Shown one piece after another: positions 2,933 to 48,025 of a stretch of 64,000 bases of DNA (the stretch's first letter is position 1; each line of letters begins with the position of its first letter). The stretch is taken from the NCBI GenBank assembly GCA_947471565.1, contig CANIVT010000005.1:9014-73013 (forward strand). Reading direction: 5' to 3'. The position numbers were made by a program, and so were the translations under genes. Below the pieces are notes generated by a model, which ran no database searches, was not told the DNA's origin, and saw nothing but the letters and a program-made list of their open reading frames with translations. The stretch is from Spartobacteria bacterium (lineage in GTDB: Bacteria > Verrucomicrobiota > Verrucomicrobiia > Chthoniobacterales > UBA6821).

Positions 2933-4213
2933 ATGAATCCCTACCAACCCGGACCCATTTCCTCGGAACTCTGGAACCGGGCGCAGAAGCGTCTTGTCGG
3001 CGGAATCAATTCCCCGGTGAGGGCTTTCCGAGGTGTCGGTGGCGACCCTTTCTTCGTTAATCGGGCCAAGGGCTGCAAAATCTGGGATGTCGATGGTCGC
3101 GAGTATATCGATTTTGTCGGCACTTGGGGACCTGCGATCCTCGGCCACGCGCCTCAGGTAGTCCTCGATGCCGTGACTGAAACGGCACAACACGGCACAA
3201 GCTTCGGGATTCCCAATCCCCTTGAAGTAGAGATGGCTGAGACCATATGCCGGATGGTTCCCTCGGTGGAGAAGGTTCGGATGACCAATTCAGGAACGGA
3301 AGCTGTGCTCGGGGCCATCCGACTCGCCCGCGGATTCACTGGCCGCGACCGGATCGTGAAGTTCGAGGGGTGCTACCATGGTCATGTCGACTCGCTACTC
3401 GTCAAAGCAGGTAGCGGCGCCCTGACCTTAGGCCAACCAGACAGCGCCGGAATCCCGTCTGCCCTCGCCTCGCTCACCACCACCCTCCCCTTCAACGACC
3501 TCCCTGCCCTTCAATCGCTCTTTAAGGAAAAGGGAAAAGAGATTGCCTGCGTCATTATCGAACCCGTCCCCGCAAATGCGGGACTCTACCTGCCCGAACC
3601 GGGCTACCTCGAGGGGATCAGACAACTCTGCAACGAGCATGGTGCTCTGATGATCCTTGACGAAGTGATGACCGGCTTCCGACTTGCACCAGGGGGTGCC
3701 CAGGAGGTCTTCGGAATCAACCCCGATCTCACCACCCTCGGCAAGGTCATCGGCGGTGGACTCCCTGTGGGGGCCTTCGGCGGTCGTGCCGACATTATGG
3801 ATTATGTGGCCCCGCTTGGTCCCGTCTATCAGGCCGGCACGCTCTCTGGAAACCCTCTCGCGCTCGCGGCAGGACTCGCCCAACTCAAGGAAATGGAGCG
3901 GATCAACGGGTGGAAGCTCCTTGAAGAACTTGGAAACTCCATGGAGGCCTTAGTAGGCGCAATGATCAAAGGAAAGCCCTACACCTTTCACCGGATCGGC
4001 TCCATGTTCTGCCTCTATTTTACGGAGGGCCCTGTCCGCCATCTTGCAGAGGCCAAGAAGAGCGATACCTCCGCCTTCGCCCGGTTCTTCCATGGTGCCT
4101 TAAGGGAGGGGATCTATCTGGCTCCTTCTCAGTTCGAAGCCGGATTCCTCTGCACGGCCCACACGACCGTGGATCTGGAAGCAGTCGCAGGAAAACTATC
4201 CTGCTTGCTTTGA
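2933..4213 (+). CDS. hemL: glutamate-1-semialdehyde 2,1-aminomutase
   Basis: N-terminus [17 protein letters not shown].. and a class-III aminotransferase body. The ATG at 2933 follows the nadA stop (2926-2928), whereas the track start at 2867 would overlap nadA. Confidence 0.92.
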
Positions 4214-5048: not shown

Positions 5049-6899
5049 ATGCCCATCGGATACCAGACCCCCACTGCTTTCATGAATTCCAGCGAGGGTA
5101 CCGGTGCGGCGACGCTGAAGACCCGAGCCGAGGTTTCCTCTGCAGACACCTGGGATCTCACCCCGATTTTTCCGGGAGACGACGCATGGGAAGCGGAGTT
5201 TGAAGGTCTTGGCGGGCGCTATGTCGGGATCACCGCGCTACGCGGAACACTCGGACGCAGCGCCGCGGATCTCGCTGCCGTGATGGCATTCGAGACCTCA
5301 CTCGACCGCTCCACGGAACGACTCGGACAGTATGCATCCCTGCGCGTCTCGGAGGATAGCTCCCATGCCTCGGCACTCGACCGAGAGGGGCGCTTCTCGT
5401 CGCTGTGCGCCAAAATCAGCGAGGCCTGTTCCTGGGTGGCCCCTGAAATTCAGAGGATCCCTGACGAAACATTCACTGATTTCCTCGAAGACCCCGTCCT
5501 GGCCGATTGGAAGATTTCCCTTCTAAGAATTCGCCGCCTCAAGCCCCACATCCTCGGCAACGCTGAGGAGCGCCTTATCTCACTGGCCATGCCGTCGCTT
5601 GGGGGTCACCACGAGACGTTCTCCCAACTAACCAATGTCGACATGACCTTCGGCAAGATCACCGACGACAGGGGCCAGGAGGTGGAACTCACCCAGAGCA
5701 GCTTCTCCTCCCTGCTCCAGCGACCCGACCGGGGCGTTAGGAAGGCAGCTTTTGAAAAGTTCTACGCGGAGTTTGATGATCACAAGTTCACACTCGCAAG
5801 CGCTCTTTCCAGCTCAGTGAAAGCGGATGTGTTCCTATCCCGCGCCCGGAACTATCCCTCGGCCCGCGAGGCCTCCCTCTTCCCCGACAAAGTCCCTGTC
5901 AGCGTCTACGACAACTTGATCTCGGCCGTCCGTTCCCGCCTGCCCGTCCTGCACGGCTACTATGCCCTTCGGCAGCGGATCTTCAACCTTCCCGACCTCC
6001 ATGTCTATGACACCTATGCGCCGATGGTCGCGGCGGTGCAGACTGAGGTCGTTTTCGACGAGGCGACCGAGATGGTCCTTCGATCCCTTGCCCCGCTTGG
6101 TGAGGAATATGTCACGATCCTCGGGCGCGGTCTCCAAGAAGAGCGCTGGTGCGACCGGTACGAGAACAAGGGTAAGCGCAGCGGCGCCTTCTCTTACGGT
6201 ACCTATCAGGCTCCTCCCTACATCCTGATGAATTATAAGAAGGATGTCTTCTCCGACATCTACACGCTGGCGCACGAGGCCGGCCACTCGATGCATACCT
6301 GGTACGCCCGCCGGGCTCAGAGCTTCCAGAACTATCACTATCCGATCTTCCTCGCCGAGGTGGCCTCGACCTTCAACGAGATCCTGCTCACCGAGCACCT
6401 GCTGGCCTCGACTCAGGACCGATCCATGCGCGCCTACCTGATCAACCGTCAGGTCGACGATCTCCGCGGGACGCTCTTCCGTCAGACCATGTTCGCGGAG
6501 TTCGAGAAACTCACGCACGAGGCGGAGGAATCGGGTGCCGCACTCACGTTGGAAAGCTTCCGCACACTGTACCGTGGACTGCTCGATGACTACTTCGGGC
6601 CAGGCGTGACAATCGATCCCGAACTGGAGTTGGAATGCCTGCGCATTCCGCACTTCTACAGTGCCTTCTACGTTTACAAATATGCCACGGGCATCTCCGC
6701 CGCCATCACGCTCGCAGACGGCGTCCTGAAGAGTGGGCAAACCGAACGCTACTTCGGATTTCTCTCAAGCGGCGGTTCGAAGTTTCCGATTGAGACGTTG
6801 GTAGAGGCAGGTGTCGACATGAACTCCCCCGCGCCGGTCAACGCAGCACTGGATCTCTTCGAGCGCAGGGTGGCCGAACTGGAGGAGCTTCTTTCGTAA
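5049..6899 (+). CDS. pepF: oligoendopeptidase F (M3B family metallopeptidase)
   Basis: 616 aa with the zinc motif HEAGHSMH and PepF-like overall architecture. Confidence 0.88.
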   Translation: MPIGYQTPTAFMNSSEGTGAATLKTRAEVSSADTWDLTPIFPGDDAWEAEFEGLGGRYVGITALRGTLGRSAADLAAVMAFETSLDRSTERLGQYASLRVSEDSSHASALDREGRFSSLCAKISEACSWVAPEIQRIPDETFTDFLEDPVLADWKISLLRIRRLKPHILGNAEERLISLAMPSLGGHHETFSQLTNVDMTFGKITDDRGQEVELTQSSFSSLLQRPDRGVRKAAFEKFYAEFDDHKFTLASALSSSVKADVFLSRARNYPSAREASLFPDKVPVSVYDNLISAVRSRLPVLHGYYALRQRIFNLPDLHVYDTYAPMVAAVQTEVVFDEATEMVLRSLAPLGEEYVTILGRGLQEERWCDRYENKGKRSGAFSYGTYQAPPYILMNYKKDVFSDIYTLAHEAGHSMHTWYARRAQSFQNYHYPIFLAEVASTFNEILLTEHLLASTQDRSMRAYLINRQVDDLRGTLFRQTMFAEFEKLTHEAEESGAALTLESFRTLYRGLLDDYFGPGVTIDPELELECLRIPHFYSAFYVYKYATGISAAITLADGVLKSGQTERYFGFLSSGGSKFPIETLVEAGVDMNSPAPVNAALDLFERRVAELEELLS

Positions 6900-14544: not shown

Positions 14545-15284
14545 TCCTTGCCTGAACGCGTCCCGCGTGAACTTCCTCCCGAAGGGTCGATCACGAGCGT
14601 GACCTCTCCCCGGGGAGGATGATCCTGATAATAGGCCGAAAGGAGGCCCGGACTACCCTGCCGGTATTCCTCGTGGATCTTAGTCAACTCGCGGCATACC
14701 GAGAGAAGGGAATCGGGCATGATGACAGCCAGATCGGCAAGACAATCGCAGAGCCGGTGCGGTGACTCAAAGTAGACCGAGGTCATTCCAAGAGCAGCGG
14801 CTTTTTTGAGTTCATTCCGCCTTCCCGATCCGGAGGACGGGAGAAATCCACCGAAGAAAAACGGGACGGGAGGGAGTCCGCTCCCTGCAAGGGCCGTCGT
14901 CACCGCACTAGCACCCGGCAGGACAGTGTAGGCGATCCCCTCGGCGACGCAGGCCCTCACCAGGCGGAACCCGGGGTCGCTGACCGAGGGAGTTCCGGCA
15001 TCGGTGACAAGCACGAGTTTCTCCCCACCTCTCAGACGCGCGATCAGTTCCGGAAGACGCCTTTCCTCGTTGTGCTCGTGGAAGCTGACGAGAGGCTTGC
15101 GGGTTTCCAGATGAGCCAGCAAAAGCCCCGCGCGCCGGGTATCTTCGGCGATCACGCCGTCACAGTTTCTGAGAGCCTCAGCGGCCCGGAAGGTCAGATC
15201 CCCGAGGTTCCCGATCGGAGTGCAGAGAAGCGTTAGCGGCGGAAGCCCTTGCTCACTCTCCGGTTGCAGTCCTTCAGCCTTCAA
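14505..15284 (-). CDS. rsmI: 16S rRNA (cytidine1402-2'-O)-methyltransferase
   Basis: TPIGNLGDLTFRA N-terminal motif and a tetrapyrrole-methylase fold. The start is a TTG inside a heptamer repeat. The 3' end overlaps accA by 40 nt, convergently. Confidence 0.83.
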   Translation of the reverse strand: MKAEGLQPESEQGLPPLTLLCTPIGNLGDLTFRAAEALRNCDGVIAEDTRRAGLLLAHLETRKPLVSFHEHNEERRLPELIARLRGGEKLVLVTDAGTPSVSDPGFRLVRACVAEGIAYTVLPGASAVTTALAGSGLPPVPFFFGGFLPSSGSGRRNELKKAAALGMTSVYFESPHRLCDCLADLAVIMPDSLLSVCRELTKIHEEYRQGSPGLLSAYYQDHPPRGEVTLVIDPSGGSSRGTRSGKDHSEKTPIPRNLA

Positions 15285-15298
15285 CCTTAAGCCCTCAG
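15271..15298 (+). repeat. heptamer repeat cttcagc cttcaac cttaagc cctcagc
   Basis: Read directly. It spans the rsmI start and the rsmI/lptE-like intergenic gap. Confidence 0.8.
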
Positions 15299-29523: not shown

Positions 29524-29560
29524 CCCTTCAGCCTTCCTCCTTCAACCTTTAGCCTTTTCC
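29524..29560 (+). repeat. heptamer repeat cccttcagcc ttcctcc ttcaacc tttagcc ttttcc just upstream of the holA start
   Basis: Read directly. It ends 2 nt before the holA ATG. Confidence 0.8.
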
Positions 29561-30714: not shown

Positions 30715-30809
30715 GCGTTCGGATGACTCGCGCAGAGGCTCGGAGATCGCGGATGAAAAAAGACTCAAGAATCCCAAGGAGATAGGTTTTGCTGTTTTTG
30801 GGAATTTTT

Positions 30810-30833
30810 CCTGAATTCCTGAATTCCTGATTC
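30810..30833 (+). repeat. 8-bp tandem repeat cctgaatt x2 plus a degenerate copy cctgattc
   Basis: Read directly. Confidence 0.85.
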
Positions 30834-30841
30834 ATCCCCCC

Positions 30842-30911
30842 CTCTGCGCCTCTGCGCCTCCGCGCGAGAATGCCTCCCTCAGCTCCTCCTCTGCGTCTTG
30901 GCGCGAGAATT
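30842..30911 (+). repeat. cargo-less copies of the GxxExxY-cassette terminal repeat
   Basis: 30842-30872 (ctctgcgcctctgcgcctccgcgcgagaatg) matches the reverse complement of 46488-46518 at 29/31 positions. A degenerate second copy at 30884-30911 ends in the same gcgcgagaat. Confidence 0.75.
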
Positions 30912-37315: not shown

Positions 37316-37331
37316 AGGGGAAAGGTGGATA

Positions 37332-37409
37332 GACTGAAGGCTGTTAGGCTATTGGGAGCTGAAGGACTGAAGCCGGACGGGGATTTCCCCGGCCTAACAG
37401 TCTTCAGCC
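37332..37409. repeat. inverted repeat containing cttcag heptamers between the aminotransferase gene and ileS
   Basis: gactgaaggctgttaggc (37332-37349) matches the reverse complement of gcctaacagtcttcagcc (37392-37409) at 16/18 positions. Confidence 0.7.
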
Positions 37410-37424
37410 TTCAGCCTAAAAACC

Positions 37425-38585: not shown

Positions 38586-38702
38586 GTTAGAAAGGTTGAA
38601 GAGTTAAAAAGTGGCCATCCACCCTTTTAACCCTTTTAACCCTTTTAACCCTTTTAACCCTTTTAACCCTTTTAACCCTTTTAACCCTTTTAACCCTTCA
38701 AC
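38586..38702. repeat. 9-bp tandem array (cccttttaa x8 perfect plus 1 degenerate) preceded by three inverted degenerate units
   Basis: Perfect copies at 38622-38693 and a degenerate copy at 38694-38702. Inverted units gttagaaag gttgaagag ttaaaaagt lie at 38586-38612. The centre is ccat at 38615-38618. Confidence 0.9.
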
Positions 38703-44022: not shown

Positions 44023-44038
44023 CGGCGGAAAAATGCAG

Positions 44039-44120
44039 AATGAAAAATGAAAAATGAAAAAACAGAATCTCCAAGGAACACTTCTCCTTCATTTCCTGTT
44101 TTCCTGATTTTTTGATTCAT
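44039..44120. repeat. heptamer arrays in inverted arrangement (aatgaaa x3 ... tttcctg ttttcctg attttttg attcat)
   Basis: Read directly. It fills the gap between the aldo/keto reductase stop and the uvrA start. Confidence 0.75.
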
Positions 44121-46414: not shown

Positions 46415-46487
46415 TCCGTAAGCCTCGACGGACGGGGCGGAGCCGCGCAAAACAAAAACGCCATCACGGTCAATTCCTGCATAAAAT

Positions 46488-46947
46488 GATTCTCGCGCGG
46501 AGGCGCGGAGGCGCAGAGATTAGAGATGGAATGAAGGAAAACGACATCGGAACAAAGATTCTGAGTGCTGCTATTGCTGTTCATCGGGAACTGGGCCCCG
46601 GTCTCCTTGAAAGCGTTTACGAGGTGGTTTTGGCCCGTGAATTGTCGGATGCAGGATTACGGGTGGAACGTCAGGTCCCCATATCGATCTCCTACAAAGG
46701 TCTTCAATTTGAAGAGGGATTCCGTGCTGACCTAATCGTCGAGCAGAAAGTTTTGCTCGAACTCAAATCCGTGGAGCAAATCGCAGCATCTCACAAGAAG
46801 CAGATACAGACCTATTTGAGTTTGAGCGGCCTCAAGCTTGGTTGCCTCCTGAATTTCGGAGATGCCGTTCTGAAAAACGGAATTACTCGTTGCGTGAACG
46901 GACTTCAGGAAAATTTCTCCGCGCCTCCGCGTCTCCGCGCGAAAATC
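46488..46947. mobile_element. candidate TIR-bounded cassette carrying a GxxExxY gene
   Basis: 31-bp arms at 46488-46518 and 46917-46947 are inverted and match at 28/31 positions. A single small ORF lies between them. A cargo-less near-identical arm sits at 30842-30872. No transposase or target-site duplication was seen. Confidence 0.5.
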
Positions 46948-46968
46948 TCTCGGAGTAACTTTACCTGA
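46531..46968 (+). CDS. GxxExxY protein (PD-(D/E)XK nuclease-like superfamily)
   Basis: GPGLLESVY contains the G-x-x-E-x-x-Y signature, followed by FRADLIVEQKVLLELKSVEQ (a D..E-x-K-like core). The ATG at 46531 is preferred over the track start, which reads through the left repeat. The C-terminal tail reads through the right repeat. Confidence 0.85.
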   Translation: MKENDIGTKILSAAIAVHRELGPGLLESVYEVVLARELSDAGLRVERQVPISISYKGLQFEEGFRADLIVEQKVLLELKSVEQIAASHKKQIQTYLSLSGLKLGCLLNFGDAVLKNGITRCVNGLQENFSAPPRLRAKISRSNFT

Positions 46969-46969
46969 C

Positions 46970-48025
46970 ATGGCTTCCCGCAAAAGCTACGACGAGCGCT
47001 TCATGAGGATCGCCCTTACCGAGGCGGCAAAGGGTCTCGATCGCACCACCCCGAACCCCGCTGTAGGTGCGGTTTTGGTTAAGGAGGGCCGTGTTCTCTC
47101 AAAAGGTTATCACCATGCCGCCGGCCTCCCCCATGCCGAGATCGAGGCCATCAGAAAATTGCTCCCTGAGTTTCGCCTTCAGTCTTCAGCCTTCAGTCTT
47201 CAGCCTCACCCGCTTGAGGGCTACACCCTCTACGTGACGCTGGAACCTTGCTCCTCACACGGCAGGACCCCTCCCTGCACGGAAGCGATCATCGCCGCGG
47301 GAATCACACGAGTGGTCTACGGGGCCACCGATCCCGACGAGCGTCACCTGGGGAAAGGAGCCAGAATCCTCCGCAAGGCCGGAATCGAGGTCGTCGACGG
47401 GGTGCTTGCCGACCAATGCAAGGCCTTGAACACGCATTGGAATCACCGCACCGCCTCGGGTATGCCATGGGTGATCGCCAAAGCGGGTCTGTCGCTTGAT
47501 GGCCGAATCGACTCCCCTCCTCACAGGCGCTGGATTACCTCGGTGGCGAGCCGTCGGGAGGCCATGAAACTGCGGGCCTCGGTGGAGGCCATTCTTGTCG
47601 GTGGCGGCACCGTCTGCACCGACGATCCCTCACTCACTGTGAGGGGCATTAAGCTTCCAAAGGGACACTCCCAGCCATGGCGGGTCGTCTGGTCCAAGAG
47701 CGGCAAAGTCCCAAAAAACTGCAAGCTGCTCACCGATGCTCACCGTGACCGCACGATCATCCTGAAAGGAATGTCTCTTCGCGCCGCGCTCAAGGAACTG
47801 GCACACCGGGGCATCTCCAGCGTTCTCATCGAGGGTGGCGGCCAGACTCACGCAGAAGCCTTCAAAGGGAAACTTGTCGACGAGGTCCGCTTCTTCATCG
47901 CACCCGTCATCCAGGGCGGGAAAGTTCCGGTCGTCAGCGGCCAGATCCCCCCGTCCCGACTCAATGACGTGACCTGCAAAAAAATCGGCTCTGACCTGAT
48001 GATCTCGGGACTGGTCAGGAAGTGA
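46970..48025 (+). CDS. ribD: bifunctional riboflavin biosynthesis deaminase/reductase
   Basis: PHAEIEAI and TLEPCSSHGRTPPC deaminase motifs plus a C-terminal reductase domain. Contains an in-frame repeat-derived insert; see the findings. Confidence 0.92.
   Translation: MASRKSYDERFMRIALTEAAKGLDRTTPNPAVGAVLVKEGRVLSKGYHHAAGLPHAEIEAIRKLLPEFRLQSSAFSLQPHPLEGYTLYVTLEPCSSHGRTPPCTEAIIAAGITRVVYGATDPDERHLGKGARILRKAGIEVVDGVLADQCKALNTHWNHRTASGMPWVIAKAGLSLDGRIDSPPHRRWITSVASRREAMKLRASVEAILVGGGTVCTDDPSLTVRGIKLPKGHSQPWRVVWSKSGKVPKNCKLLTDAHRDRTIILKGMSLRAALKELAHRGISSVLIEGGGQTHAEAFKGKLVDEVRFFIAPVIQGGKVPVVSGQIPPSRLNDVTCKKIGSDLMISGLVRK
47176..47205 (+). repeat. heptamer repeat (cttcagt cttcagc) x2 inside the ribD coding sequence
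   Basis: Read directly. It translates in frame as RLQSSAFSLQP. Confidence 0.9.

Follow-up and report, generated by a model that had tools for sequence, protein, structure and literature searches.

A translated heptamer array in the RibD loop of a Spartobacteria bacterium is one of several allele classes at a single site

The ribD gene of the window and its heptamer array

The stretch analyzed here, hereafter the window, comprises 64,000 nucleotides of DNA from a Spartobacteria bacterium (assembly GCA_947471565.1, contig CANIVT010000005.1, positions 9,014 to 73,013) and contains a ribD gene whose reading frame includes a tandem array of four 7-bp units (Table 1). The open reading frame (ORF) gives a full-length match to the TIGR00326 RibD profile above the curated cutoff (286.3 bits against 156.35, residues 12–342 covered) that includes both the deaminase and the reductase domain. 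Orthologs carry Pfam PF00383 and PF01872, and the best solved relatives of the window protein are 2b3z, 2g6v, and 3zpc. The zinc-binding motifs H-A-E and P-C-x(8)-C are intact in the window RibD and invariant in alignment A1.

The array reads ccttcag tcttcag ccttcag tcttcag followed by cc (47176–47205) and is translated in frame as EFRLQSSAFSLQPHPLEG. Tandem Repeats Finder (TRF) reports it with a period of 7 (3.9 copies) and also with a period of 14 (2.3 copies, 100% match), and the two-unit pattern CTTCAGYCTTCAGY has 4 matches in the window where 0.00 are expected from 100 dinucleotide-preserving shuffles. The original prediction, made from the letters of this DNA, had placed four heptamers in frame within an intact ribD, which sequence, TRF, and translation bear out, and had counted 32 residues between the HAE and TLEPC motifs, a count that holds. 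Its figure of about 18 residues for the same interval in Escherichia coli RibD matches the solved structures, which have 18 (Bacillus subtilis 2b3z and the 8dq9 chain with E. coli-type sequence) and show an alignment gap across the insert. The array is followed by a CTTG mini-hairpin that is weakened in the window; in locus L093 (loci other than the window are designated L with a number) it reads GTCCG-CTTG-CGGAC, with one compensatory pair.

The AlphaFold2 (AF2) model of the window RibD has a mean predicted local distance difference test (pLDDT) score of 76 and consists in this region of a helix at residues 56–64 (HAEIEAIRK), coil at 65–85 with a pLDDT of 57 at residues 71–80, and a strand at 86–91. 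The expanded segment is thereby predicted to lie in coil between helix and strand. In the cytidine-deaminase fold the N-terminus of helix 2 and the beginning of helix 3 carry the zinc ligands; judged from this fold, the helix 2–strand 3 loop would lie at the helix end far from the metal.

Table 1. Positions of the ribD features and of the intergenic heptamer arrays within the window
Feature	Position	Strand	Remarks
ribD, bifunctional deaminase/reductase	46970..48025	+	intact, 351 aa; TIGR00326
H55-A56-E57 codons (zinc ligand, catalytic Glu), left conserved anchor of cassette	47132..47140	+	invariant in A1
HAE..TLEPC interval, residues 58–89, 32 aa	47141..47236	+	helix 2 end, expanded loop, strand 3 start
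approximate insert, 39 nt / 13 aa (RLQSSAFSLQPHP), relative to 19-residue allele of close relatives	47174..47212	+	from alignment with 19-type loops, e.g., L087 ILPEKALGAT; boundaries approximate
four heptamer units CCTTCAG TCTTCAG CCTTCAG TCTTCAG, 28 bases	47176..47203	+	within ribD
ACCCG-CTTG-AGGGC, weakened mini-hairpin copy	47208..47221	+	other 32-type alleles have GCCCG-CTTG-CGGGC after the array
TLEPCSSHGRTPPC codons (zinc-ligand cysteines), right conserved anchor	47237..47278	+	invariant in A1
array ccttcag ccttcaa ccttaag ccctcag	15271..15298	+	between lptE and TP_methylase gene, both on the minus strand, so antisense to transcription
array ccttcag ccttcct ccttcaa cctttag ccttttc	29525..29559	+	fills 45-nt spacer from uvrB stop (29517) to ATG of holA-like gene (29563)
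hairpin element, CTGAAGG units left (37334–37374), TCTTCAG CCTTCAG right (37401–17)	37332..37417		between aminotransferase stop and ileS start

Allele classes of the loop and their exchange between backbones

Relatives of the window were freshwater 'Spartobacteria'/Chthoniobacterales metagenome-assembled genomes (MAGs) of Verrucomicrobiota. The comparison used 120 close protein homologs (67–98% identity) with 95 further cluster members, 160 ribD loci together with their flanks, drawn from collections of genomes and metagenomes, and 9 more loci found by exact protein match. An outgroup of 96 loci consisted of orthologs at 36–59% identity from the Planctomycetes-Verrucomicrobia-Chlamydiae group and a few other phyla. 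In the metagenome scan the single window protein returned no match, and alignment A1 used as the query returned 80 loci.

In the 96 outgroup loci the HAE..TLEPC interval has 16–23 residues. Among 197 in-clade proteins it has 19 residues in 51, 28–29 in 9, 30 or 32 in 71, and 36–50 in 66, and the expanded classes differ in the DNA that fills them. The 28 class is made of CATTCCC/CATCACC units and the 30/32 class of (CCTTCAG)x4, and in the 36–50 class a left arm built from GGAAGCT/GGAAGAT is separated by a spacer from a right arm of AACTCCC/AACTCCT that is approximately the reverse complement of the left. At a lag of 7, at least 17 of 21 positions match in 27 of the 38 expanded loops with DNA, as against none of 30 in-clade 19-type loops. 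Across 782 kb of clade DNA, TRF finds 49 arrays of period 7, of which about 40 lie within the ribD loop, and in a stringent scan of 10–20 kb flanks from about 20 genomes the ribD loop is practically the sole strong period-7 array.

A single site is occupied by at least four allele classes (no insert, CATTCCC/CATCACC, CCTTCAG x4, and the two-arm GGAAGCT...AACTCCC type), and the insert of the window represents one of them. It constitutes the +13-residue allele of a clade-specific hypervariable cassette in the helix 2–strand 3 loop. The proposal of a lineage-specific insert in a tolerated loop is upheld by these interval lengths, by the AF2 coil, and by the gap in solved RibDs, and the ortholog alignment shows no insert of the same length conserved across the phylum. 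The interpretation of the original prediction is supported only in part; it missed that the site is multi-allelic and its cassettes are exchanged by recombination.

The alleles move between lineages as tracts of about 100–150 nt and do so independently of the gene backbone. Loops that are 92–95% identical occur in backbones only about 70–74% identical. Between the window and L162 the loop core has 92% nucleotide and 82% third-position identity, against 67–74% and 43–49% elsewhere; between the window and L164 the corresponding values are 98% and 100%, against 63–81% and 37–62%. Backbone identity below 78% is combined with loop identity of at least 85% in eight pairs of the same type, one of which (L007/L101) is an alignment artifact.

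Conversely, backbones 93–99% identical carry different alleles or have the insert in one member only, and nine pairs with backbone identity of at least 90% differ in allele. L101 and L110 have 28- and 43-type loops at 99% backbone identity, L102 and L165 have 19- and 32-type loops at 96%, and the syntenic loci L162 and L167 have 32- and 19-type loops while being 97% identical over 7.9 kb upstream. The backbones of L093 (CCTTCAG type) and L109 (two-arm type) are 97% identical, and the segment replaced between them is bounded by atcagg and gcggacgcg, with flanks 96–100% identical on both sides. In a three-way analysis of informative sites, L165 follows L102 except from about −26 to +87 around the loop, where it equals the window and L164, giving a conversion tract of about 115 nt. 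Both allele states also occur within single protein clusters at 90% identity and on many independent long contigs, the 32-type protein P0138 on 46 contigs and the 19-type protein P0135 on contigs of up to 629 kb.

We infer that the transfer occurs by short-tract homologous recombination. Such recombination would find its anchors in the codons for PHAE and TLEPCSSHGRTPPC, which flank the loop and scarcely vary (the DNA upstream of the HAE anchor is 97–100% identical between the window and L162), and a heterologous insert would stop heteroduplex extension, so that breakpoints would pile up at the loop. The level of identity shifts at the loop in three pairs, which fits heterology blocking heteroduplex extension, the L086 case being alternatively an assembly chimera.

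Two lines of evidence were set aside. A neighbor-joining tree of 181 loop-masked sequences intermingled the allele types, and its topology was distrusted, pairwise backbone and loop identities being used instead. The pair L081/L086, 99% identical with different alleles, was dropped as primary evidence because L086, which combines two lineages that meet at the loop (100% L087-like on its 5′ side and 100% L081-like on its 3′ side), may be an assembly chimera.

Origin, copy number, and function of the insert

Arrays of the same heptamer occur outside ribD. Intergenic arrays were sought as at least three units with at most two mismatches per unit, with the expectation taken from Markov resamples, and CCTTCAG-like arrays were found at 15271–15298 and 29525–29552 where 0 are expected. 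Of the three intergenic arrays listed in the original prediction these two stand, and the one placed at 37332–37409 is an inverted pair of short arrays that forms a hairpin, its RNA folding at z = −4.6. This element and the ribD array have the 17-mer CAGTCTTCAGCCTTCAG in common, and the claim that the insert is built of the heptamer found in intergenic arrays of this genome is correct. The intergenic arrays occupy, in one orientation or the other, short spacers whose flanking genes are co-directional.

The spacer upstream of ileS contains CTGAAGR units in L162, which has a 32-type ribD, and other units in the 97%-identical L167, which has a 19-type. As a separate observation, the sequence and heptamer content of this spacer are wholly different among L162 (2184–2373), L167 (2217–2373), and the window (37316–37424), although the flanking genes are 97% identical. 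The rate of turnover of the intergenic array cassettes seems as high as that of the ribD loop.

Viral contigs contain 47 stretches of (CTTCAGY)x4, mostly of about four units, as compared with 4 stretches of the control heptamer TTCCAGY, 28 of CTCTGAY, and 14 of AACTCCY. These counts indicate that four-copy heptamer arrays are general in some phage and host genomes and that CCTTCAG is the commonest of those tested without being unique. Two unit types of the ribD alleles co-occur in such phage-like DNA: on the minus strand of the 5-kb IMG/VR contig L200 (3300–3450) an (AACTCCC)x6 array abuts an ATG and the ORF that follows contains (CCTTCAG)x4, read as SPSAFSLQPSAS, and on the minus strand of the IMG/VR contig L176 (90–160) first (CCTTCAG)4 and then (CTCCYAK)4 stand between a stop codon and the next ATG. 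Within 40 nt of ORF starts the viral arrays are sense in 21 cases and antisense in 24, by a crude ORF test that is uninformative in high-GC DNA. The array in ribD thus matches the intergenic and many viral arrays both in unit and in the typical copy number of four. The composite of the array with CGCCCGCTTGCGGGC was found nowhere outside ribD in the loci or viral contigs, which indicates that the mini-hairpin is partly native ribD sequence.

Taken as a whole, the evidence makes it probable that the RibD loop carries a heptamer insert of fixed length and nearly neutral effect, captured from the genomic repertoire of such arrays and exchanged among lineages as recombining alleles. The array would originally have been captured from this genome-wide repertoire, and only the sense orientation would be tolerated in ribD; the reverse complement CTGAAGG puts TGA in frame, which is why ribD has only the sense arm and the intergenic copy has both. 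The translated peptide would then be a neutral or nearly neutral flexible loop, decaying by point mutation until replaced. Of the 15 substitutions that separate the window from the 98%-identical L161, the 96-nt loop contains 6 and the segment 47206–47223 contains 4, and the changes adjoining the array are nonsynonymous (R/H, A/E, C/Y); degenerate arrays are kept in L090 and L103. The concentration of substitutions in the loop and the degenerate arrays indicate relaxed constraint and decay after acquisition.

The folding of the inserts bears on the same point. RNA and single-stranded DNA folds of inserts are no better than those of shuffles (z = −0.04 to −1.5), including the loop of the window (z = −0.9) and the two-arm alleles (z = −0.6 to −1.2), and Rfam at its gathering threshold gives 0 matches over the whole window. 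These folds, the absence of an Rfam match, and the coexistence of insert-free alleles are the grounds on which the insert is treated as neutral or nearly so. A reading of the ribD copy as a hairpin element was dropped because its fold z-scores are not significant.

Several observations weigh against this explanation. Capture itself is unproven, as no convincing target-site duplication or clean insertion junction was found at the insert boundaries and close pairs replace the whole loop. No CCTTCAG array occurs in 48 kb of flanks of the other 32-type carriers L002, L085, and L093, an underpowered comparison given that about 2.3 would be expected at the density of the window. Similarity to the units is also seen in native 19-type DNA (aGGAAGCTgACTCCt for RKLTP, and GCCCTCGG in L087), which makes an origin in place conceivable. 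The third-position conservation of the array may partly reflect selection at the nucleotide level, as the compensatory change in the CTTG mini-hairpin hints. The surface exposure of the loop is weakly indicated by an AF2 model of moderate confidence together with fold geometry. Finally, the data are metagenome assemblies, and some mosaics (L086, L127) may be assembly chimeras.

Origin in place is the first alternative to be weighed. It holds that the array is a microsatellite produced by tandem duplication of native loop codons, diversified there and with no relation to the arrays of spacers and phages. In its favor, every allele class occupies the same site, the native 19-type DNA holds the unit-like strings GGAAGCTGACTCC, CAGCCCTTCA, and GCCCTCGG (the last in L087), the units of three classes differ mostly by transitions, three-unit steps show slippage operating, and a Kiritimatiellales ortholog independently has (CCTAAAG)x4-5 in the same loop. 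However, the unit, its T/C variant, the shared 17-mer, and the four-copy length recur at three intergenic sites of the window and in 47 viral stretches; an AGTTGGG/AGCTGGA array occupies a second site, the N-terminal tail of the L121 ribD; and L162 and L167 differ both in ribD allele and in intergenic unit family. We therefore regard an origin in place as unlikely.

Two of these loci call for a fuller description. The Kiritimatiellales MAG L062 has its array at 4177–4211 in a ribD of 40% identity whose loop has 21 residues; it is the only outgroup locus (1 of 96) with a period-7 array in the ribD loop, which may be chance or convergence. In L121 the units AGTTGGG AGTTGGG AGTTGGA AGCTGGA AGCTGGG (5144–5178) are in frame in the N-terminal tail and encode MKSHGIYKLGVGSWKLEAGETKEADEAYMRLA, a peptide motif identical to that of the left arm of 43-type loops; the loop of L121 itself has 19 residues.

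A second alternative is that the insert is a selected functional element, whether as an mRNA or DNA structure, as a site for a heptad-recognizing protein, or as a new protein surface. The conservation of third positions in the 32-type allele across backbones about 70% identical argues for it, as do the compensated CTTG mini-hairpin and the arrays that abut start codons in viral contigs, and by analogy the omega/ParB protein of pSM19035 needs at least four contiguous heptads to function (PMC9499535). Nevertheless, insert-free alleles occur within the same 90%-identity clusters, the units are wholly different between allele classes, degenerate arrays persist, the substitutions in 98%-identical genes are concentrated in the loop and change amino acids beside the array, and the insert RNA neither folds better than shuffles nor matches an Rfam family. 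A selected function appears accordingly improbable, more so than an origin in place.

Because the unit length is not divisible by three, gain or loss of a single unit would shift the reading frame, as the original prediction recognized in proposing a contingency or phase-variation site. Under that proposal slipped-strand mispairing of the 7-bp units would switch ribD on and off, as in neuO of E. coli K1, where an AAGACTC tract in the 5′ coding region yields full-length protein only at a copy number divisible by three (PMC13001214). The ribD array shares with neuO the position inside an ORF, and the sister two-arm class does vary in length, in steps of exactly 7 residues. L003 and L099 differ by a clean 21-nt gap, equal to three units, and loops of 43 and 50 residues occur within one 90% cluster; further length pairs are 44/37 and 43/36. 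That only three-unit steps are seen in this class indicates that slippage occurs and that selection passes frame-preserving steps only.

The CCTTCAG class itself behaves otherwise. Exactly four units are present in all nine distinct DNAs with intact alleles, all 71 proteins (37 distinct loop peptides) have the four-unit length with no variant of plus or minus 7 residues, and the exact window protein is found on 7 independent contigs. No frameshifted ribD allele occurs among about 100 loci or the cluster members, so that the variation in copy number among close relatives, OFF states included, that characterizes neuO is lacking here. The tract is moreover short and interrupted by C/T alternation, being in effect 2 x 14 bp, and ribD is a housekeeping biosynthetic gene, whereas neuO ranges from 3 to 53 repeats and is OFF in 66% of genomes (PMC13001214). 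The array of the window shows no sign of being a phase-variation switch, and its length is fixed; switching of ribD by slippage is highly improbable. A unit not divisible by three inside an ORF is insufficient evidence for a contingency locus.

That the array is an assembly or sequencing artifact is barely credible: the contig of L015 ends inside the array (1–80), an unrelated ORF is fused to ribD exactly at HAE|IEAL in L127 (1–450), and L086 is a mosaic, but the same 96-nt loop is present in the window, L161, L261, and the 7 contigs with the exact protein, near-identical arrays occur in L162–L166 from other studies, and the ORF is intact with all catalytic motifs. These three loci do lend some support to the suggestion that the site is a hotspot of assembly error. 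For annotation and metagenomics, contig breaks, chimeric joins, and misleading 'species' clusters are to be expected at this site.

Relation to known systems and neighboring repeats

The closest parallel to the ribD insert is found in the Rickettsia palindromic elements (RPEs), short repeats located in frame in conserved enzymes, translated at fold-compatible sites, and varying in presence among relatives (PMC10969869). Like them, the ribD insert is a translated repeat also found outside genes and placed in a permissive loop of a housekeeping enzyme: its 13 additional residues fall in coil 65–85 of the model and are absent from the outgroups and from 51 in-clade orthologs, and copies occur at three intergenic sites within 64 kb where 0 are expected. 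RPEs, however, are palindromes of about 100–150 bp with a conserved peptide and a stable hairpin, whereas the ribD insert is a 28-bp heptamer array (39 nt in all), its 32-type allele has no significant hairpin, and several unrelated allele classes compete for one site via recombination.

The neuO variable number tandem repeat of E. coli K1 and phage CUS-3 resembles the array in its 7-bp unit within an ORF, in the preservation of frame by three-unit multiples, and in the gain of 7 residues per three units (PMC13001214). It differs in having 3–53 copies, mostly OFF, at the 5′ end of an accessory gene, whereas the ribD array, which lies in an internal loop of a housekeeping enzyme, keeps to four copies, with no OFF alleles seen. 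The intergenic arrays of the window resemble the short tandemly repeated repetitive (STRR) sequences of cyanobacteria, genome-wide families of 7-bp tandem repeats that are intergenic, in some cases hairpin-forming, and of unknown function (PMC2670836), but STRRs belong to another phylum, have other units, and are described in promoter and intergenic regions and not as translated enzyme cassettes (PMC2670836).

The element at 37332–37417 is comparable to repetitive extragenic palindromic (REP) sequences, bacterial interspersed mosaic elements (BIMEs), and REPINs (REP doublets forming hairpins) as an inverted pair of short repeats with a strong hairpin in a spacer between co-directional genes, although its arms have a heptamer-array substructure and the ribD copy is not palindromic. 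The iterons of omega/ParB of pSM19035 are contiguous direct or inverted 7-bp units with a minimum of four (PMC9499535), which matches the typical four-unit length of the heptamer arrays described here. This likeness is one of pure analogy; the unit sequences are unrelated, and many different units coexist here.

A wider and distinctly tentative proposal, which we consider possible but doubtful, is that freshwater Chthoniobacterales and their phages carry an undescribed class of short elements consisting of about four 7-bp units, in several families and in direct or inverted arrangement, that build spacers and 5′ leaders and are copied into new sites including stop-free reading frames. The RibD loop would then be a standing landing and exchange site whose competing alleles spread across species through recombination with anchors in the zinc-motif codons, possibly with drive, and the elements would be a bacterial analog of RPEs, built as minisatellites and having a trans-specific pool of alleles. 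The locus indicates that translated DNA from a genome-wide repeat can be accommodated in an essential, highly conserved enzyme and that an insert of this kind can behave as a cassette with multiple alleles, shuffled between species in recombination tracts of very short length. For the biology of repeats, it points to an uncharacterized family of four-unit heptamer arrays in Verrucomicrobia and viral contigs, for which leader, terminator, and protein-binding array are candidate roles.

Other short-unit arrays were observed near the genes considered here. The intergenic spacers of the window are often made of arrays with 7–9-nt units, as in the perfect (ACCCTTTTA)x8.7 at 38621–38698, (GAAAAAT)x4.9 at 44028–44061, and (TTCCTGAA)x2.9 adjoining (CCTCTGCG)x3.1 at 30808–30865. 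L085 has a perfect non-coding (CTAGCTC)x11.4 at 14565–14644. An array (GTTTCAG)x4, whose unit is related to CCTTCAG, lies in a spacer about 1.6 kb downstream of ribD in L162 (12629–12658), L163 (3008–3037), and L094 (11899–11928).

Directly upstream of ribD in the window is a GxxExxY/PDDEXK_3 gene (46486–46968) flanked by inverted arrays of 8-mers, (GCGCGGAG)x3 and (CTCCGCGC)x3, at 46495–46518 and 46917–46940. The ribD array starts 208 bp after this ORF, a distance that the original prediction had put at about 230 bp. The gene lies between an rlmD-like gene and ribD in the window, L161, L261, and L005 and is absent in L162, L164, L165, and L167, a patchy presence that gives it the look of a variable cassette.

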